This document shows positions 12,369 to 24,126 of a DNA stretch of 32,000 bases, one piece after another. Location of the stretch: assembly GCA_046497275.1 (NCBI GenBank), contig JAWOFX010000057.1, forward strand, positions 90,001 to 122,000, written 5' to 3'. Source of the DNA: Promethearchaeia archaeon (lineage in GTDB: Archaea; Asgardarchaeota; Lokiarchaeia; Sigyniarchaeales; SOKP01). A program made the position numbers and the translations under genes. The notes under the pieces are model-generated. The model saw only the letters and a list, made by a program, of their open reading frames with translations. It was not told where the DNA came from and did not search any database. Each line of letters begins with the position of its first letter. Within the stretch, counting starts at the first letter, position 1.

Positions 12369-13691
12369 TCATTTGATATGAAAGAATTTTTCTTCAAATT
12401 CTGGTTTTCCTTTATATTTTTGCATAAATAATAAGGGTGCTTTATCAATATTTTTATAAAAATATGAAGGTACGTGAATTCCTGCCTTTTCTAAGCCATC
12501 TCTAAGATCTTCTACAGAAGGAGGACATCCATTAATAGCAATTAACTCATTAATATTAGGATGGTCACTATGTTTTGAACACTGGCATTGTCCAAGGAGG
12601 ATAGTTTTATTATTTCCTTCAGTGGGTTCCATATTTTTCCCGGTTAATATTTCAATATTATCAAAGGGTTCACCCTTATAAGCTTGCATTATAGCCGTTA
12701 GAACAACTCCATTCAATATAGAACAAAAAGTACACATCGATTCATCATATTTATGATATTTTATTCCTTCTATACCTGCCTTAGCATATGGGAGAGGAAG
12801 AGTATTATTTTCCTTATAAATATAGTCCCACTCATGATGGTTCGCTAAATCTTCGATATTATCACCCAATACTTCTATATCAGATAAATTAGGAGTACGA
12901 CTTCGATCTTCTGCTGCTTGAACTAAATAAGGAACATTTGATGGATCGATACCTAACAAGTTTGCTCCAACTAGATCAGCAGAAAGAATATCTCTGGAAG
13001 CTACTAAAACATTACTCCTATGTGCTTTTCCATCCATCGCAGGGCCTCTTTCAATGGTATAAATTCCATCTAATATTGTCAAACATAGAGGAATTTTGTT
13101 TGCTAGTTGAGCTACATTATAATGTAAATCATGTTCTGGATTTGCACTATGAAATTTTTTTCGAGATGGTATATTTATCAATCCTTTCAAATTTTTGATG
13201 CCTAAGCTCACAACACATTGAGCATGTGTTTTAAGGACTGGTAAATTAACCAAGAAGTCTGAATGGAGCATATCTGCGTTCATTTTTGCGGAAACATTTT
13301 CAGTAAGATAAACTCTTTCGAAAGGTCTATCAAAAGTATTAAGTACTTCTATCCCAAATTTATCTTTTAAAGTATAATACCCTAAGGACTGAAAGGCATC
13401 TTTTACTGTTTCTTCATCATCTTTCTCTTCAGTTATAATTCCTTCTCCAATAGAAATGTTAGAAAAACCATTCTCGACGAGAATCCTTACAACATCCTCC
13501 ACAACTCTGCTCGTAGTTATCATTCCCCATTTGGGAAAATCACAATGGCGGTTCCAATAAACTACATTAGGTTTAATGAAGATTTTTGAATTTTTAGGAA
13601 CATTATCCAATCCATTAATAAGGTCTATTAAATTTTTAACTGATTCATATGGTTCTTTATATTCTAATACAGAAACTTGATATTTTGTCAT
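12369..13691 (-). CDS. DUF362-family protein with Cys-rich C-terminal (Fe-S-like) domain
   Basis: IFIKPN, GEG, NLPVLKTH, SLGIKNLKG, ILDGI, DILSAD; C-terminal CTFC, GQCQC, GCPP. Confidence 0.8.
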   Translation of the reverse strand: MTKYQVSVLEYKEPYESVKNLIDLINGLDNVPKNSKIFIKPNVVYWNRHCDFPKWGMITTSRVVEDVVRILVENGFSNISIGEGIITEEKDDEETVKDAFQSLGYYTLKDKFGIEVLNTFDRPFERVYLTENVSAKMNADMLHSDFLVNLPVLKTHAQCVVSLGIKNLKGLINIPSRKKFHSANPEHDLHYNVAQLANKIPLCLTILDGIYTIERGPAMDGKAHRSNVLVASRDILSADLVGANLLGIDPSNVPYLVQAAEDRSRTPNLSDIEVLGDNIEDLANHHEWDYIYKENNTLPLPYAKAGIEGIKYHKYDESMCTFCSILNGVVLTAIMQAYKGEPFDNIEILTGKNMEPTEGNNKTILLGQCQCSKHSDHPNINELIAINGCPPSVEDLRDGLEKAGIHVPSYFYKNIDKAPLLFMQKYKGKPEFEEKFFHIK

Positions 13692-13908: not shown

Positions 13909-16797
13909 TTAAAAGATTATATCGTTTTTTCGCCCATAATATTTTACAATTTCAAAAGAAATTATGCAGATTAAAGAGATTAGAAAACATACTAACCAAT
14001 CTTGCCAGGTAAGAAACATAAACATAAAATTTATACCTACTGCTGCTAGGGTAGTCTGGACTCCAGGTATGTAAATTAACATTATCAGAATCGCAAATAG
14101 AAATCCCGTAATAGAAAACATTAGCCGAGTTCTATCTTCCTTCAAGCTTTTTAATAAGGATTTATTGGGCCTTCTTATTTGAAATACTAAAGAAGTTTCA
14201 CAGAAAAATAGTGTCACCATCAACATTGTTAATGTTTTACCATTTATTCGATCTGTGAGAGTTCCAAATTCGCTACCACTTGTGTAAAGATAAAAATCAT
14301 TCCATTCTCCGAATTCATAATTTTCGGGAAATAAAGGGTAGGCCCCTGTAATAGTTATGAAATAGACTAACAACATCGAAATTGTTAATAAAATCCCGAA
14401 TGCGAATAATAGAAGAATTGTGTTTTTGGAAAGTATTTCCTCAGAGTTTCGGGGTTTTTCATTCATTACGTCACCTGAGGTTTTATCAAATGTTAATATT
14501 AACCCTGGAAATGTATGGAGCGTAATTGAAAGAAATATCCATTGAAAATAAAATATCTCTGGTTTAAGAAAATATGGTAATTCAAAAATGACAGCGAGAA
14601 TAAATTGAACAATTCCTTCAAATAAATTAATACAAATATAGAAAAATACAATCGCACGAATCTTTGAAAAAATACCCCTTCCTTTTTGGATACCAGTTAC
14701 AATTGAATTAAAAGAATCATCTGAAATTACCATATCTGAAGCTTCTTTTGCTACATCCGTTCCTTGAATTCCCATCGCAATACCAACATCAGCCATATTT
14801 AATGCTAGAGAATCATTAACTCCATCTCCAGTCATGGCTACCACTCGATTTTCCTCTTTATATCTCTTAATGATATCTTCTTTATTTTTCGGGGATACAC
14901 GAGCAAAAACTTTTACGTGATTAAATTCTTCTGATGATTCTAATTCATTTATTTGGCTCCCCTCAATAACTTTGTCATTCTCATTTTTTATTATTGATAT
15001 TTGTTTTGCTATAGCTTCAGCTGTAATCTTTGAATCTCCTGTGATCATCAAAGTTTTAACTCCTGCTTTTTCACATGTTTCCACAGATTCTCTTACTCCT
15101 TCTCTTGGAGGGTCTAAAATAGTGACGAATCCTAAATAAACCATATCCGATTCAAATTTATCTCTATTCTCATCCGAGAGTTCAGGCAACATATAAAAAT
15201 CTTTATAACAAAAACTTAATACACGATAACCTTGTGAGGCATAACTCTGGATTAGATCATTTACTTCTTTTCTCAGTTCATCAGTAAATTCTTTTTCAGT
15301 ACCTTTATAACAGATTTGATTACATCTCGGTATAAGTATTTCACTTGCTCCTTTGGAAAATGAATAATTTTTTTCATCTTTTTTATATATTTTAGTCATT
15401 CTTTTTATCGAAGAATCAAATGGATATTCTTTCACGAAATCATAATCTTCTAAAAGATAATCTCCCATAATCTTTTGAAAAAGAACTACTAAAGCCCCCT
15501 CAGTTGGAGATCCAATTACTTTCCAGTTATTGATAATTTTAGCCCCTTTTCCCGAACTTTCAATCTCTGACTTGACAAGGGCAGAATTATTGTTCAAAAA
15601 TCCAGAAATTAATAATAATTTTAAAAAGGGATAATCTTCGATATGCTTAATATAACTTGGGTTTTTTTTATCATCAATATTAACGATCTCTCCTTCTGGT
15701 TTGTATCCACTTCCTGTGATCTTAAAAATTGAACCATTTGAATAAATATGTTGTACAGCCATTTGATTTTTAGTTAAAGTGCCCGTTTTGTCTGAGCAGA
15801 CTACGCTTACTCTGCCAAGACTGTCTACAGATGCTAGGTTTCTAATTATCACCCCTTCACGAGCCATAGCTAAAACACCTGTTAGTAAAACAATTGTAAT
15901 TAATAAGGGTATATTAATTGGGAGTATATCTAAGGCTGAGTTCAAACTTATCACAATCTCATTCTCAGTAAAGCCTCTTGTGACCCATTTAAAGAATAAA
16001 ATAACTAGCCAAAGCACAATTACAGCAATACCCAGCCATTTCCCAAAATGATTCATTTTTTTTTGAATAGGGATTTCAGTGGTTCCTGCCTTCTTTAAGC
16101 CCTCAGATATCTTTCCTATCTCTGTTTCCCCGCCAATTTTTACAGAAATCGCTCTTCCATTTCCCATAGTGACATATGTTCCATAGAATATCATATTCTT
16201 TCTGTCTTGGATTGGTCTTGTATCTTCTATTGCTTTTCCTTCTGAATCCTTTTTTACCGGTTCACTTTCTCCAGTTAATGATGCTTCATTTAATTCTAGA
16301 TTAGTGCCTGAAACAATTCTAGCATCTGCCGGTATCTTATCTCCTTGATTAATAACTAACAAATCTCCTTTAGTAACTTCTCGAGTTGGGATTTCCATTT
16401 TCTTCCCTTCTCGTATAACAGTGGTGGTGGGAGCAGCTAACTCTTGTAAAGCTTTTAGTTTTTTCTGAGCTCTAAATTGCTGAATAATGGCAACCAAGCA
16501 ATTTAATAGAACTATTCCTAATGTTAAAGCAACAATTAAAAGATTTCCCCTAAATCCAAGAAGACTTGCTAATAATAATATTAATGCTCCTAATAAATAA
16601 ATAACAATTAACCAATTGAATAAGGGCGCTAAATAAATCTTTACGAAACTTCTCTTATATTCTGGAAGTTCATTATATCCATATTGCTGAATTCTCTCTT
16701 GAACTTGTTTCTCGGTGAGACCTTTTGTAGGATCTGTATCGAGTTCTTCATAAAGACTATCTAAACGTAATTTATAATAATTTTGATCAATTTCCAT
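13909..16797 (-). CDS. P-type ATPase, P2A-like scaffold with non-canonical transport site (paralog 1)
   Basis: LTGES, phosphorylation site DKTGTLT, KGASE, DPPREGV, MITGD, MTGDGVND; TM4 reads DILPINIP instead of AIPEGLP. Confidence 0.93.
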   Translation of the reverse strand: MEIDQNYYKLRLDSLYEELDTDPTKGLTEKQVQERIQQYGYNELPEYKRSFVKIYLAPLFNWLIVIYLLGALILLLASLLGFRGNLLIVALTLGIVLLNCLVAIIQQFRAQKKLKALQELAAPTTTVIREGKKMEIPTREVTKGDLLVINQGDKIPADARIVSGTNLELNEASLTGESEPVKKDSEGKAIEDTRPIQDRKNMIFYGTYVTMGNGRAISVKIGGETEIGKISEGLKKAGTTEIPIQKKMNHFGKWLGIAVIVLWLVILFFKWVTRGFTENEIVISLNSALDILPINIPLLITIVLLTGVLAMAREGVIIRNLASVDSLGRVSVVCSDKTGTLTKNQMAVQHIYSNGSIFKITGSGYKPEGEIVNIDDKKNPSYIKHIEDYPFLKLLLISGFLNNNSALVKSEIESSGKGAKIINNWKVIGSPTEGALVVLFQKIMGDYLLEDYDFVKEYPFDSSIKRMTKIYKKDEKNYSFSKGASEILIPRCNQICYKGTEKEFTDELRKEVNDLIQSYASQGYRVLSFCYKDFYMLPELSDENRDKFESDMVYLGFVTILDPPREGVRESVETCEKAGVKTLMITGDSKITAEAIAKQISIIKNENDKVIEGSQINELESSEEFNHVKVFARVSPKNKEDIIKRYKEENRVVAMTGDGVNDSLALNMADVGIAMGIQGTDVAKEASDMVISDDSFNSIVTGIQKGRGIFSKIRAIVFFYICINLFEGIVQFILAVIFELPYFLKPEIFYFQWIFLSITLHTFPGLILTFDKTSGDVMNEKPRNSEEILSKNTILLLFAFGILLTISMLLVYFITITGAYPLFPENYEFGEWNDFYLYTSGSEFGTLTDRINGKTLTMLMVTLFFCETSLVFQIRRPNKSLLKSLKEDRTRLMFSITGFLFAILIMLIYIPGVQTTLAAVGINFMFMFLTWQDWLVCFLISLICIISFEIVKYYGRKNDIIF

Positions 16798-16841
16798 AGA
16801 GATCTACTTTAATGTTTATTTAAACTATATAAGAACATAAG

Positions 16842-16879
16842 TTATCTTTTAATAATGATAATAAGACTATAAAAGATAA
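16842..16879. repeat. Perfect 10-bp inverted repeat, 18-nt spacer, between the tandem ATPases
   Basis: TTATCTTTTA (16842-16851) / TAAAAGATAA (16870-16879). Confidence 0.5.
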
Positions 16880-16906
16880 GTTTTAAAAATTTTTAGAAAA
16901 ATACTA

Positions 16907-19762
16907 CTAAAAAAAATTTCCCTTTTTATGGAAATAATACTTATACATTTCTATACCAATAATTCCTGGGGATGCAAATAAAATACACATAAGCCAATCA
17001 GTGAAAGATAAAAATAGGAAATTTAGTTGGAAATTTAAACCTAAAATATTATTAATGACATTATTAACAGGATATGAAAATAAGACTAATAGAATATGAA
17101 TTAGGAGTGTAAATAAGACCACTAAAAATAATTTCAATGAGAATTCCTCCTTAATACTTTTTATAAGTTGTTTATTTGGTCGCCTAAATGTCCAAATGAA
17201 TGTGGTTTCCGCAATATATAACGTAGTAATAAACATTGTTCGTGCTTTCTGGTCAATTAATTGCTTTGGTGTAAAACTAGTTATATAACTTAGGTTTGGG
17301 TTTAAATTATATTTATTCAGTGGAAATCCACCAGCTAGAGTTATTTGTAAGACAAGTATTAGACCTATTCCTATTAGGAATGCTTGAAGAATTAACATTT
17401 TCCACATATTTTTATTTAAAATACCCTCATCATTTCTAGGAGGTTCTTTCATTATATCTTTTGGATATGTATCAACAACTAAAGCTAAAGAAGGTAATGA
17501 ATGAACTATCCCAAAAATATAGATATGTTGCCAATTTGAGATGAATAAATCAAAAAATGGAGAAAATTCATAAGCGAAAAAAATCAGACCTTCCATTAAA
17601 TTAAGACATATAAAAAAGTATATAATCGTCCTAATACGTGAAAAGAGCCCCCGTCCAACCTCAATACCCTTTCTAATAGAAATGAAATTATCATCTGAAA
17701 TTACCATATCGGATACGTCTTTTGCAACGTCTGTTCCAGTTATACCCATTGCAATTCCACAATTAGCCAATTTTAACGCAAGAGAATCATTAACACCATC
17801 TCCAGTCATAGCAACTACCTTTTTTTTCTTCTGATAATTATTAACAATAATTTCTTTATCTGATGGTTGAACTCGAGCGAATACAGTTATTTTCTCAAAA
17901 TCTAATTCATCTATATTCTTCATTTCATTACCTTCGATTACAATATCACCAGGATTAAAAATTCCTACCTCAGAAGCAACAGTTTTAGCTGTAGAAGGAT
18001 GATCTCCTGTGATCATAGTAACTTTAATATTAGCTGATTTACAATCTTCTACAGCTCCCTTCACTCCATCTCTAGGTGGATCAATGATGGAAATAACTCC
18101 TAATAAAATAAGATCTTGTTCTACTTCCTCCCTCTTTTTCATATGAATATCATCATCAAAATCAATATTTTTATAAGCTATGGCTAAATTTCTATAACCC
18201 ATATTCCCCTTTTTCTCTATTTTTTTGATTATATCACTTTTCATCATATTATCCAATATTTGTTTCTCTCCTTCAATTTCGATAAATCTTGAAAGATTTA
18301 ATATAATTTCGGGCGCACCTTTTGAGAATGCATATATTTTTGATTCATTACTATTACGTTTACAAATAGTGGTCATTCTCTTGATTTCTGAATTAAAAGG
18401 AAATTCTATAAGAATATCATAGTTACTTCTAATATCATAAATAATAACTCCAAATTTTTCAGCTAAAACTAATAATGCTGCTTCTGTAGGTGAACCTAAC
18501 GCCTTCCTAACTGCTTGAGATTTAATATTATGTTTTTTAATTTTCACATCTTCATATATCAGCTTAGCGTTATTATTTAATACCATCGAATCAATGAATT
18601 TTGAATAAGTGGGTTTGTTATTCAAACGAAATTTCTCTCCATCTTTCAAAACTTCACCTTCTGGATCATAGCCAGAACCAGTTACCTTTAAATCCTCATA
18701 ATTAATCCACATCTCTTCAACTGTCATTTCATTTTTAGTAATGGTTCCAGTTTTATCAGCGCAGATAACTGAAACCCTTCCCAAAGACTCTATTGAAGAT
18801 AAATTCTTAATAACAACTCCACTTTGAGCCATATTTAATACACCTGTTATTAAAACTAAAGTGACTAATAATGGTAAATTAATTGGCATGATATTCATTG
18901 CTCGCAATATTGAGTCTGTAAGTGCATTGGAAACCTCTTGATTTAAAATTGTCAATTTGTAAATGATGAGAACGGTAAGATTAATCAGAACGATTGTACC
19001 TAAGACATAGCCTAATCTATTTAGTTTTTTAGTTAAAGGAATCTCTTCTATCGATCCCATTTGATTGAGAGATTCCGATATTTGTCCTATTTTTGTCTCT
19101 TTCCCAGTACTTGTAATAACGACTTTAGCTCTTCCCGTATGTATATAAGTGCCCATAAAAACCATATTTTTTTGATCTTGTATAGGAATATCTTCTCTTT
19201 CAGGAATTTCTTCATTCTTTTCTATAGGCTCACTCTCGCCGGTCAAGGGAGCTTCATTCACAGATAAATCACTTGAATTAAAAATCCGTCCATCAGCGGG
19301 AATTTTAGAACCTTGATCTAATAAAACAATATCCCCTGGAACAATATCTCGAGAAGGTATTTCTTTTTGCTCATTATCACGAATGACTGTACTATTCAAA
19401 GCGGAAATTTTTTTGAGTGAATCTAAGGCCTTTTGAGCTCTATATTGTTGAATTATAGCAGTAGAAGAGTTAATGAACACTACTGTAAAGGTAATAATTG
19501 TTTCTGAAGGGGAACCAAGAATTATTATTGCAATCCCTGCGATGATAAGTATTAGAATTAAAAAATTAAATATTGGCGCTAAATAAATCCTCCATAGATT
19601 TCTTTTAACCTCTGGTAATTCATTATACCCATATTTTTCTATTCTTTTATTAACTTGTTTTGGATCTAATCCCTTTTTCGGATCAGTATTAAACTCTAAT
19701 AATAATTGGTCGAGTGATTTATTATAATAATTTGAAATCTTTTTGGAAGATTTATTAATCAT
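16907..19762 (-). CDS. P-type ATPase, P2A-like scaffold with non-canonical transport site (paralog 2)
   Basis: LTGES, DKTGTIT, KGAPE, DPPRDGV, MITGD, MTGDGVND; TM4 reads NIMPINLP. Confidence 0.93.
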   Translation of the reverse strand: MINKSSKKISNYYNKSLDQLLLEFNTDPKKGLDPKQVNKRIEKYGYNELPEVKRNLWRIYLAPIFNFLILILIIAGIAIIILGSPSETIITFTVVFINSSTAIIQQYRAQKALDSLKKISALNSTVIRDNEQKEIPSRDIVPGDIVLLDQGSKIPADGRIFNSSDLSVNEAPLTGESEPIEKNEEIPEREDIPIQDQKNMVFMGTYIHTGRAKVVITSTGKETKIGQISESLNQMGSIEEIPLTKKLNRLGYVLGTIVLINLTVLIIYKLTILNQEVSNALTDSILRAMNIMPINLPLLVTLVLITGVLNMAQSGVVIKNLSSIESLGRVSVICADKTGTITKNEMTVEEMWINYEDLKVTGSGYDPEGEVLKDGEKFRLNNKPTYSKFIDSMVLNNNAKLIYEDVKIKKHNIKSQAVRKALGSPTEAALLVLAEKFGVIIYDIRSNYDILIEFPFNSEIKRMTTICKRNSNESKIYAFSKGAPEIILNLSRFIEIEGEKQILDNMMKSDIIKKIEKKGNMGYRNLAIAYKNIDFDDDIHMKKREEVEQDLILLGVISIIDPPRDGVKGAVEDCKSANIKVTMITGDHPSTAKTVASEVGIFNPGDIVIEGNEMKNIDELDFEKITVFARVQPSDKEIIVNNYQKKKKVVAMTGDGVNDSLALKLANCGIAMGITGTDVAKDVSDMVISDDNFISIRKGIEVGRGLFSRIRTIIYFFICLNLMEGLIFFAYEFSPFFDLFISNWQHIYIFGIVHSLPSLALVVDTYPKDIMKEPPRNDEGILNKNMWKMLILQAFLIGIGLILVLQITLAGGFPLNKYNLNPNLSYITSFTPKQLIDQKARTMFITTLYIAETTFIWTFRRPNKQLIKSIKEEFSLKLFLVVLFTLLIHILLVLFSYPVNNVINNILGLNFQLNFLFLSFTDWLMCILFASPGIIGIEMYKYYFHKKGNFF

Positions 19763-21081: not shown

Positions 21082-21648
21082 ATGAAAAGAGAGATTATTT
21101 CAAACAATATAAAAATCTTTGGAGGATTTTTATTTATTATTATGTCTGTTTTAGAATTGATTAATTTATCTTTTATTCTTTTTACACCATTTAAAATAAA
21201 TGATACTTCAACAGCCTTTGCAAATTTAATTTTGCAACTTGATTATGGCGTCTTATTTAGTTTTATTTTATGGTTTACACTAGTTATGGTTATATTTTTC
21301 TTTTTAATAAATGGTTTTTATTTTGTAAAAATTTCAAAAAATGAATTAGAATCATTTGAATATTCTAAACACATCTTTTTGATGGGTTTGATTCTTCTTC
21401 TTTTAACATTTTTTAAAATGTGTATAATATACTTTATTGAAATTGGAGAAATTATAATTGGTGGGGAAATGATTCAATTGGAATCTGCGCTTCAAGATTT
21501 TAATTATATGCCAATATATTCATTCTATATGTGGCGTTTGTTAACTGTATCAGATTGTTATCGGCTTACATTTGGATTAGTTATGGGAGGATTTGGCTTA
21601 TATTGGCATTTAATTGAGGAAAAAAGAATTAAGCCTGATGAGGCATAA
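21082..21648 (+). CDS. Hypothetical membrane protein (about 4 TM)
   Basis: Four hydrophobic stretches; no recognised motif. Confidence 0.7.
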   Translation: MKREIISNNIKIFGGFLFIIMSVLELINLSFILFTPFKINDTSTAFANLILQLDYGVLFSFILWFTLVMVIFFFLINGFYFVKISKNELESFEYSKHIFLMGLILLLLTFFKMCIIYFIEIGEIIIGGEMIQLESALQDFNYMPIYSFYMWRLLTVSDCYRLTFGLVMGGFGLYWHLIEEKRIKPDEA

Positions 21649-22413: not shown

Positions 22414-24126
22414 ATGAGATTAGTAAGGATTAATACTAAAGAAGATGAAATTATTTCTGAAGAGATCACTAAAGAATCAGATTTTTTTCTATTTGGTGCA
22501 AGAGCCTTAACTTCAAAAATTGTTAAAGAGGAAGTACCTCCAAAATCTGAGCCTTTTGGGCAAGATAATAAATTAATTATAGCAAATGGATTATTGACCG
22601 GAAGTCCATTTCCAAATTCTGCTCGGACCTCAATAGGAGGGAAGAGTCCTTTAACAAGGGGAATTAAGGAATCAAATACAGGCGGGAGGGGGGCCCTGTT
22701 ATTAGCTCAACATGGAATTAGAGGGTTGGTTTTAGAAAATAAATCTGAAAAGTGGAAAATTATTCTTATCGATGATGACGGAGTTCATTTTAAGAATGGA
22801 GAAGAATATAATGGATTAGGAAATTATGAGCTTTCTGAAAAATTATATGAAAAATATGGTAAAAGAATTGGGATATACTCAATAGGTCCTGCTGGAGAAA
22901 ATATGATGAAAGCATCAACCGTTGCATCTAATGATCTAGAAGGATATCCTTCTCGTCATGCAGCCAGAGGGGGGCTTGGTTCGGTCATGGGTTCGAAGAA
23001 AATCAAAGCAATAATAATTAAATTACCGCAAGAGTCTAAAGTAGAAATTAAAAATATTAAGAAATTTAGAGAAATATCAAAACCTTTTACAAAGAGTCTC
23101 GCGACTACTAAGGAAACTTTTTCGATATTTGGCACTCCCTTGATGATTAAAGCAATGAGTGAATATGGGGGATTACCTACAAAAAATTTCAGGAAAGGTT
23201 CTTATGATAAAGTTGATAAAATTTCAGGAGAAAGATTACATGAGTTAATTTTAGAACGTGGTGGTAAAAATAGATTAGCATGTTGTCCAACCTGCGTAAT
23301 AAGGTGCTCAAATTTAGTAAATGATGAAAAAGGTGAACATATTACTTCAAGTATGGAATATGAAACAATCGCCATGAATGGTTCTAATTTATTAATTGAT
23401 GATTTGGATGTGATAGCAAAAATTAATCGTGTTTGTGATGATTTAGGAATTGATACAATCGAATTTGGTGCTACTTTAGGAGTTGCTATGGATGCGGGAA
23501 AGGTTGAGTGGGGGGATTCTGAGAAAATTTTTGAATTACTTCATGAAATAGAGAACGGCTCAGAATTAGGAAAATTATATGGAAATGGGGTAATCCATTT
23601 AGCAGAAAGAATTGATCATAACAGAGTTCCTCAAGTGAAAGGTCAAGGATTTCCAGCTTATGATCCTCGCGTATTTAAAGCTATGAGTGTGACATTTGCA
23701 ACATCTCCAATGGGAGCCGATCATACTGCAGGTGCTGCTATAGCTGGCAGATCAGCTAGGCAGGATAAGGATTATGGAGAATTAACAGATAATGAAAATA
23801 AATTAGAATTATCATATGAATTACAAATCTATACTGCGGTTCTAGACTCTATGGGATGCTGTTATTTTATTGGACCAAGTTATGAGAATATGGAATTGAT
23901 TGCTGATGCGCTGAACGCCATGTATGACCTAAATTTAACTCGAGAGGATGTTATAGGTCTTGGTAAGCAGATAATTAAAAAAGAAATAGAATTCAATAGA
24001 CAAGCAGGTATTACAGAGGAAATGAATAAATTACCAAAATTTCTACGCTCAGAAGGTTCTGAACCTACCCAATTAAAAGTGACATTTCCAGAAGAAACTT
24101 TAAAATATTTCTGGAAAAATCTATAA
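22414..24126 (+). CDS. aor: Aldehyde:ferredoxin oxidoreductase family (W/Mo-pterin, Fe-S)
   Basis: KSPLT.GIKESN.GG, IGPAGEN, HAARGGLGSVMGSKKIKAI, CPTCVIRC, EYET, DDLGIDTI, GADHT motifs. Confidence 0.92.
   Translation: MRLVRINTKEDEIISEEITKESDFFLFGARALTSKIVKEEVPPKSEPFGQDNKLIIANGLLTGSPFPNSARTSIGGKSPLTRGIKESNTGGRGALLLAQHGIRGLVLENKSEKWKIILIDDDGVHFKNGEEYNGLGNYELSEKLYEKYGKRIGIYSIGPAGENMMKASTVASNDLEGYPSRHAARGGLGSVMGSKKIKAIIIKLPQESKVEIKNIKKFREISKPFTKSLATTKETFSIFGTPLMIKAMSEYGGLPTKNFRKGSYDKVDKISGERLHELILERGGKNRLACCPTCVIRCSNLVNDEKGEHITSSMEYETIAMNGSNLLIDDLDVIAKINRVCDDLGIDTIEFGATLGVAMDAGKVEWGDSEKIFELLHEIENGSELGKLYGNGVIHLAERIDHNRVPQVKGQGFPAYDPRVFKAMSVTFATSPMGADHTAGAAIAGRSARQDKDYGELTDNENKLELSYELQIYTAVLDSMGCCYFIGPSYENMELIADALNAMYDLNLTREDVIGLGKQIIKKEIEFNRQAGITEEMNKLPKFLRSEGSEPTQLKVTFPEETLKYFWKNL

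Follow-up and report, generated by a model that had tools for sequence, protein, structure and literature searches.

A 32,000-nucleotide stretch of a Promethearchaeia archaeon genome (assembly GCA_046497275.1, contig JAWOFX010000057.1, positions 90,001–122,000), referred to below as the window, contains two neighboring genes that encode the P-type ATPases P0001 and P0002. Both proteins were found to belong to an uncharacterized clade, which appears to be specific to Asgard archaea and to have branched from prokaryotic P2 (Ca2+-pump-like) ATPases. Judging by the residues at the transport site, P0001 and P0002 are quite likely pumps of this P2-derived clade with a rebuilt binding site, carrying a small cation other than Ca2+. 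An original prediction, made from the sequence of the window, had likened the fourth transmembrane helix (TM4) of both proteins to that of eukaryotic P4 lipid flippases.

Two tandem P-type ATPase genes

Both genes are located head-to-tail on the minus strand, and the plus-strand translation at both TM4 motif sites is nonsense. Translation of the minus strand confirmed the octapeptides DILPINIP and NIMPINLP at exactly the coordinates of the original prediction (Table 2); both are located approximately 43 residues upstream of DKTGT. A HMMER alignment to LMCA1 of Listeria placed the Ile of the motif on the Glu of PE(G/A)L, and its assignment to the position of SERCA Glu309 was thus found to be correct. 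P0001 and P0002 are 42% identical over their full length. According to their sequences, they are intact P-type (E1-E2) ATPases and are presumed to be working enzymes.

Conservation of the transport site

Site residues were compared in a MAFFT alignment of 369 sequences (268 family members and 101 canonical relatives) together with the HMMER alignment to LMCA1. Positions are numbered according to P0002 and are given with their SERCA equivalents (Table 1). The roles of the SERCA residues are known from established Ca2+-ATPase structures.

Table 1. Residues of the transport site in the family and in canonical relatives
Position in P0002	SERCA equivalent	Family members	Canonical relatives
294	Glu309	hydrophobic 268/268 (Ile 220, Leu 33, Val 6, Phe 5, Trp 2, Met 2)	Glu 101/101
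295	Gly310	Asn 264/268	Gly 90/101
721	Asn768	Asn 263/268	Asn 93/101
724	Glu771	Glu 268/268	Glu 96/101
750	Asn796	Asn 0/268; Phe/Tyr in P0002 types, Ser/Thr/Ala in P0001 types	Asn 98/101
754	Asp800	His 267/268, Asp 0/268	Asp 96/101
852	Glu908	Glu 266/268	Glu 42/101, Gln commoner

The ion ligands expected of a P2A pump, namely the Glu of the PEGL motif in TM4 and the Asn and Asp of TM6, are replaced in P0001 and P0002 by Ile, by Phe or Ser, and by His. Ca2+ site II (Glu309, Asn796 and Asp800) has thus been dismantled in the clade. The side chains of site I, that is, the Asn and Glu of TM5 and the Glu of TM8, have been retained under strict selection, with the Asn of TM4 and the His of TM6 as additions. 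Site I is more constrained than in the single-site Ca2+ pumps, since Glu is nearly invariant in the family at the Glu908 position and is present in fewer than half of the canonical sequences. The Asn of TM2 equivalent to Asn106 of the plant proton pump AHA2 was present in 266 of the 268 family members. Further signatures of the clade are Gln in place of Glu109 in M2, Pro at an M1 position that is Gln in canonical pumps, and GDGVNDSL instead of GDGVNDAP.

The TM4 pattern of the family is P-[IVLFW]-N-[ILF]-[PV], with the second Pro present in most members, and the motif is a conserved feature of the clade and not a matter of chance. In deep branches, an aromatic residue occupies the Glu309 position (PWNFP, PFNFP) and Tyr or Phe the Asn796 position. 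Three positions before the TM4 Pro, 110 of 120 P0002 orthologues have Asn and all 120 P0001 orthologues have Asp; across the wider clade, the residue varies (S/N/T/A/K/Q). The Asn at this position, which had been put forward as a flippase-like trait of the second paralogue, is thus typical of the P0002 orthologues but not of the clade. Because the pockets of the two types differ (Asp with Ser/Thr in P0001 types, Asn with Phe/Tyr in P0002 types), these types probably differ in their ion or in their affinity for it.

Domains, profiles and predicted fold

The Pfam domains Cation_ATPase_N, E1-E2_ATPase, Cation_ATPase, Hydrolase and Cation_ATPase_C, which make up the complete set of P2/P3-type pumps, were found in both proteins. 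The two terminal domains, along with ten TM helices in the AlphaFold2 (AF2) model, correspond to a P2-type architecture. Superfamily motifs are intact among the 268 members: DKTGT is 100% conserved, TGES is conserved in at least 97% and GDGxND is present. The closest solved relatives by sequence are LMCA1 (E-value 3e-133), SPCA1, SERCA and Na,K-ATPase. In comparison with the P2A Ca2+-ATPases (LMCA1, SPCA1/PMR1 and SERCA), which provide the best sequence and fold matches, the clade has the same order of domains (Cation_ATPase_N, A, P, N, Cation_ATPase_C), the same number of TM helices, the motifs TGES, DKTGT and GDGVND, and the site I residues Asn768, Glu771 and Glu908. However, it lacks PEGLP and Asn796, carries the His, Gln and GDGVNDSL replacements described above, and forms a separate clade.

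The general P-type model TIGR01494 was the only NCBIfam model whose cut-off (62.3 bits) was exceeded, with 284.6 bits for P0001 and 279.7 bits for P0002. The best specific models, at 416–494 bits, were PMR1 (TIGR01522; 494 and 441 bits, cut-off 798), SERCA (TIGR01116; 420 and 438 bits, cut-off 703) and fungal ENA (427 and 416 bits). The P3A model TIGR01647 gave 336 and 350 bits, which is below its cut-off of 615.5 and below all P2 profiles, and the P5 model TIGR01657 gave 238 and 251 bits (cut-off 618). The scores for the P4 model TIGR01652 (106 and 113 bits, cut-off 431) were far under those for the other subfamily profiles. As a control, the same models were run on ten more proteins, five of them canonical PEGLP pumps and five other members of the family. 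The canonical pumps reached 659–732 bits with TIGR01116 and 722–821 bits with TIGR01522; equivalog cut-offs that such relatives reach or approach were missed by P0001 and P0002 by approximately 270–350 bits. With the P4 model, the family scored 86–123 bits versus 76–105 bits for the canonical controls, and with the P5 model 223–251 bits versus 230–265 bits, so there is no extra similarity to either class. Given that clade members scored 420–520 bits with the PMR1 model versus 720–820 bits for the controls, the family has lost similarity to P2A pumps and has not gained similarity to P4 or P5 pumps.

The AF2 model of P0002 had a predicted local distance difference test score (pLDDT) of 81.9. In this model, the TM4 helix is broken at residues 292–295 and TM6 at His754, that is, where SERCA-type pumps unwind. 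The top 50 matches obtained for the model with Foldseek were all P2A or P2C pumps. An exhaustive structural alignment gave Z-scores of 25–33 for P2, P3, P4 and P5 structures alike, so the fold itself cannot separate the subfamilies; within these alignments, sequence identity was 26–32% to P2 pumps versus 16–20% to P4 pumps.

Phylogeny and distribution of the clade

The trees were built from family members, canonical P2-like pumps, Asgard P3A pumps and P1B pumps, without P2B, P2C, P2D, P3B, P4, P5 and P6 sequences, and were rooted on P1B for reading of the IQ-TREE result. In the FastTree analysis (75 rows), the family formed one clade with a support of 91. IQ-TREE (LG+C20 with posterior mean site frequencies, quick search; 45 rows) recovered the clade with an SH-like approximate likelihood ratio support of 100 on a stem of 0.59. 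The clade was placed in an unresolved group with the canonical P2-like pumps (support 93), and the Asgard P3A pumps were located outside this group.

Among the matches listed, P0001 had at least 119 homologues at 64–83% identity and 98–100% coverage, and P0002 at least 119 at 61–76% identity. The named homologues in these lists are all Asgard, with the labels Promethearchaeota, Loki-, Thor-, Hod-, Hermod-, Odin- and Heimdallarchaeota; the view that the window comes from an Asgard genome, considered probable in the original prediction, was supported. An exhaustive HMMER search of 1.84 billion cluster representatives revealed approximately 37 clusters (50% identity) with P-[hydrophobic]-N and the TM6 His, followed by canonical PEGLP pumps at approximately 35–38% identity. 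All named deep members are Asgard except for one cluster (P0252) that bears the submitters' unconfirmed label Korarchaeota. This member (L119, on a contig of GCA_012974725.1) adjoins a small GTPase gene of the Arf/Ras/Roc type and Peptidase_C25 genes, and a neighboring aminoacyl-tRNA synthetase is at most 53% identical to those of Asgard archaea. The label may be wrong, as the gene content is typical of Asgard metagenome-assembled genomes (MAGs).

Asgard genomes were also surveyed for members of the clade. By profile search, the clade was present in 66 of the 121 sampled genomes of the Asgard phylum (GTDB) and in 12 of 26 families, with one to about five copies per genome. Membership was called at a profile score of at least 1079 bits; canonical pumps scored 909 bits or less, which left a clean gap. 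A check of this gap on 16 loci found the signature in 9 of 9 high-scoring proteins and canonical residues in 7 of 7 lower-scoring ones. For one MAG (L028/G121), the submitters' label "Methanosarcinales" looks doubtful; it groups in a class of 0.5–1.5 Mb genomes.

Besides the pair in the window, the source genome (98.9% complete) has genes for three P1B pumps and for six canonical PE[GE]L pumps, two of which form a second tandem pair; no P3A pump was found in it by profile search. With six canonical pumps in the genome, the pair in the window is an addition and not the only Ca2+ pump of the cell. The second pair (C185:1894–8039, outside the window) consists of P2-type proteins of 950 and 949 aa that are 79% identical to each other and have the canonical Glu, with PEGLV in TM4 and NIATDG in TM6; P2 pumps have thus been duplicated in tandem more than once in this genome. 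A member of another Asgard family contains its own tandem pair of the clade (L114; G025:C86:1232–7495). Since both of these copies are of one subtype and are very similar from TM4 to TM6, tandem duplication within the clade probably happened more than once. An alignment scan of genome contigs with the generic motifs DKTGT and GDGxND gave only canonical pumps (29–37% identity). A literature search found no paper that names PINIP or PINLP pumps or Asgard flippases.

Comparison with P4 flippases

The original prediction regarded the clade as a possible intermediate toward P4 flippases or as a convergent solution for an amphipathic substrate. Several features could be cited for this view, namely the loss of ion site II, the Asgard lineage of the host, the Ile after the invariant TM4 Pro (equivalent to the Ile of PISL, the PEGL Glu being absent in both groups) and the Asn three residues before the Pro in the P0002 orthologues. 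In addition, P4 structures align to the model of P0002 (Neo1 with a Z-score of 27.3, Drs2p with 25.7), although every P-type ATPase does so. The Ile itself is an incomplete mark of P4 pumps, because Ile or Val also stands in place of the PEGL Glu in P3 ATPases, AHA2 among them (PMC4937031); it is therefore not diagnostic of flippases. The Asgard P3A pumps of the fetched loci have PVALP or PAALP in TM4 and keep the TM6 Asp.

P4 and P5 ATPases are regarded as unique to eukaryotes (PMC10654040). The motifs that define P4 flippases such as ATP8A2, Drs2p and Neo1p are DGET in the A domain, PISL without a second Pro, a Lys in M5 (K873 in ATP8A2) and a Cdc50 partner, and these proteins lack buried acidic residues (PMC4937031). 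In P0001 and P0002, the corresponding segments read TGES (T174-G-E-S), PINIP or PINLP with the second Pro kept, and NLxE without the Lys, all as stated in the original prediction. The Glu residues of TM5 and TM8 and the His of TM6 are conserved in the clade as buried residues, as in ion pumps. P4 pumps also have end domains, of which neither PhoLip_ATPase_N nor PhoLip_ATPase_C was found in P0001 or P0002 (Pfam, E-value of 0.001 or less). The absence of a CDC50-like gene from the window was likewise confirmed. No match to CDC50 (PF03381) was found in the source genome either; this search matched in no genome and hence had no positive control. P4B pumps need no Cdc50 subunit.

The P4 profile scores, which are on par with those of PEGLP pumps, the low identity to P4 structures and the Asp found at the Asn position in all P0001 orthologues also argue against a flippase. 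A specific tie between the clade and the eukaryotic lipid flippases is thus not supported, whether as an intermediate or as a relative, and a flippase-like or convergent transporter of amphipathic substrates is very improbable. What stands of the proposed undescribed subfamily is a coherent P2-like subfamily with a non-canonical site; no tested feature favors an amphipathic or non-cation substrate.

Proposed mechanism and substrate

We propose that one small cation would bind from the cytoplasm in the E1 state at a single Glu/His/Glu (+Asn) center formed by Asn721, Glu724, His754 and Glu852, with Asn295 contributed by the unwound TM4. Binding would trigger the phosphorylation of Asp336, the ion would be released outside in the E2P state, and the TGES loop would then dephosphorylate the enzyme, in keeping with an E1–E1P–E2P–E2 cycle. 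The convergence of these side chains on one pocket is suggested by the alignment to SERCA and LMCA1. TM sites with a His are a typical trait of proteins that transport transition metals, namely P1B pumps and the ZIP and CDF families. The leading candidate for the substrate, although at somewhat less than even chances, is a divalent metal for which His can serve as a ligand (Mn, Fe, Co, Ni or Zn). It is favored because of this association of His with transition metals, because two carboxylates balance one M2+ and because the full set of site I ligands is conserved beyond the needs of a proton relay. The proton, moved by a Glu-His relay, comes next as a distinctly less probable substrate, and an organic or other cation is slightly less probable again. 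Ca2+ is improbable, and a lipid is scarcely to be expected.

Several observations weigh against this reading. The acidic residues of the SERCA entry funnel have been lost in the clade (Glu109 of M2 is Gln), which fits a divalent cation less well, and the aromatics at the Glu309 and Asn796 positions in deep branches are also compatible with an organic cation. A partner gene specific for some substrate was looked for and not found, and the neighborhoods of five deep members share nothing. The hydrophobic residue at the Glu309 position, together with the acid/base pair of TM5 and TM6, resembles the P3A pumps with the polarity swapped. In an approximately unbiased (AU) test, the grouping of the family with P3A pumps as one clade was not rejected (delta lnL 5.9, p = 0.41); hence, the deep position of the clade is not fixed by the trees and convergence with P3A is not claimed here. 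The last two points are central to the main rival explanation, a proton pump in which His754 of TM6 would act as the proton acceptor and donor and Glu724 of TM5 would tune its pKa, as a charge-swapped analogue of Asp684/Arg655 of the P3A pumps. The Asp684/Arg655 mechanism of AHA2 is a precedent (PMC10654040), and the hydrophobic Glu309 position of P3 pumps, including those of Asgard archaea, the conserved TM2 Asn and the lack of a P3A pump in the source genome are also consistent with it. However, P3A pumps (AHA2, PMA1 and archaeal proteins), which share these site features, have Asp in TM6 and Arg in TM5 instead of His and Glu and are approximately 815 aa long, and those of Asgard archaea score 700–1077 bits with TIGR01647, a model with which P0001 and P0002 score below all P2 profiles. 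In the maximum likelihood tree, the clade groups with canonical P2 pumps and P3A pumps fall outside, and the strict conservation of the TM8 Glu and the TM5 Asn would not be needed for a one-proton relay. Moreover, the distribution is not complementary, since G083, G109 and G113 carry both P3A pumps and clade members, and the presence of as many as five diverged copies in one genome points to different specificities. A proton pump is therefore considered unlikely, although it deserves more weight than the other alternatives.

The aromatics of the deep branches, the loss of the funnel residues and the diversified paralogues could also indicate an exporter of organic cations, e.g., polyamines, similar to P5B pumps, in which amines would be held by Glu and His and by cation-pi contacts with aromatic residues. 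Such an exporter is rather doubtful, given that the clade scores no higher than canonical controls with the P5 profile, that TM4 has a single Pro before the Ile and not the PP(E/D/A)LP of P5 pumps, and that no polyamine genes were found near the pumps in the window or at the compared loci. Furthermore, the retained ligands map one-to-one on Ca2+ site I, i.e., on a small-ion geometry. Those same ligands (Asn768, Glu771 and Glu908) would be expected if the proteins were ordinary Ca2+ (or Mn2+) efflux pumps that hold Ca2+ at site I only, in line with the database names "Ca2+-transporting ATPase" and "cation-translocating P-type ATPase" and with the reading of Asgard P2 pumps as putative Ca2+ ATPases (PMC7997004). 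This explanation is improbable in view of the missed equivalog cut-offs, the absence of the gating Glu309 and the six canonical pumps already present in the genome; in addition, the Asp that is replaced by His in the clade is described as "omnipresent" in Ca2+ efflux pumps (PMC10654040). A precedent is the mycobacterial CtpE, another prokaryotic Ca2+-pump-like offshoot without the TM6 Asp, for which a family of its own (P6) was recently proposed; as described, CtpE is a bacterial Ca2+ importer that retains PEGL and has Ile in place of the TM6 Asp, whereas the clade lacks the TM4 Glu and has His in TM6 (PMC10654040). It is improbable that the clade is a separate, Asgard-confined family of P6 rank that binds, in place of a classical inorganic cation, an amphipathic or organic substrate (such as a lipid head group or a polyamine) at a Glu/His/aromatic pocket. 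If true, archaea of the lineage from which eukaryotes arose would have solved the "giant substrate" problem independently. The non-Ca2+ small cation pump with a rebuilt site is the explanation favored here.

Genomic neighborhood

The coordinates of the pump genes and the neighboring features are given in Table 2. Since the two pump genes neither overlap nor are translationally coupled, they may be transcribed from separate promoters. An 83-aa ORF (open reading frame) without a Pfam family was called between the two pump genes of one syntenic MAG (L115:10966–11217); the spacer in the window has no counterpart of it.

Table 2. Features of the window (positions refer to the 32,000-nucleotide stretch)
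Feature	Position	Strand	Description
DUF362 protein gene	12369–13691	minus	downstream of the pumps
P0001	13909–16797	minus	P-type ATPase, 962 aa; ORF and translation; downstream gene of the pair; TM4 ALDILPINIP, TM5 INLFEG, TM6 SITLHTFP, TM8 Glu present
TM4 motif of P0001	15907–15930	minus	DILPINIP; Ile = SERCA Glu309, Asn = Gly310, Asp three residues before Pro
Spacer between P0001 and P0002	16798–16906	minus	109 bp, AT-rich
P0002	16907–19762	minus	P-type ATPase, 951 aa; ORF and translation; upstream gene of the pair; TM4 AMNIMPINLP, TM5 LNLMEG, TM6 FGIVHSLP, TM8 Glu present
TM4 motif of P0002	18872–18895	minus	NIMPINLP; Ile294, Asn295
P0399	19936–20916	minus	326 aa, upstream of the pumps; N-terminal CxH...CxxC Zn ribbon, helical body
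Multi-pass membrane protein	21082–21648	plus	188 aa; divergent from the TFB-like gene; no Pfam family
Aldehyde:ferredoxin oxidoreductase gene	22414–24126	plus	near the pumps

The protein P0399 had only a weak match in Pfam (A2L Zn ribbon) and shares 60% identity with the product of the gene that occupies this place upstream of the pumps in another Asgard MAG. Its AF2 model was of low confidence (pLDDT 63.5), and the top Foldseek matches were all TFIIB/Brf/TFB proteins with E-values of approximately 1e-3. On the basis of this model, P0399 may be a divergent TFB paralogue, that is, a transcription factor dedicated to the pump locus. Two other Asgard MAGs (L115 and L116) and most genomes of the family to which the window belongs share the gene order TFB-like gene, P0002 type, P0001 type. 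The downstream DUF362 gene, which in those two MAGs is a few genes away, and the nearby aldehyde:ferredoxin oxidoreductase gene recur in L115 and L116. The position of the 188-aa membrane protein is also conserved in other Asgard MAGs, with 29% identity in L116.

The five deep members are solitary in unrelated neighborhoods, and no metal chaperone, beta subunit or recurrent partner was found around them. A deep-branching member with PWSFP in TM4 (L120:4693–9954) is flanked on its own strand by genes for a GT4 glycosyltransferase and an NAD-dependent sugar epimerase. The gaps to these glycan genes are 73 and 43 bp, and the three genes could form an operon.

Implications

Further prokaryotic P-type families, like the CtpE-type P6 family, are to be expected (PMC10654040), and the clade described here is an undescribed family of this kind, which databases annotate as a Ca2+ pump. 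The clade is old and diversified: it comprises approximately 37 clusters, reaches five copies in a genome and is present in about half of the Asgard genomes sampled. As far as could be tested here, it has no bearing on the origin of the eukaryotic flippases. The clean exchange seen in the clade, with site II deleted, site I kept and the TM6 Asp replaced by His, constitutes a natural experiment on the ion selectivity of the SERCA scaffold. Identification of the substrate would fill a gap in the physiology of Asgard archaea.

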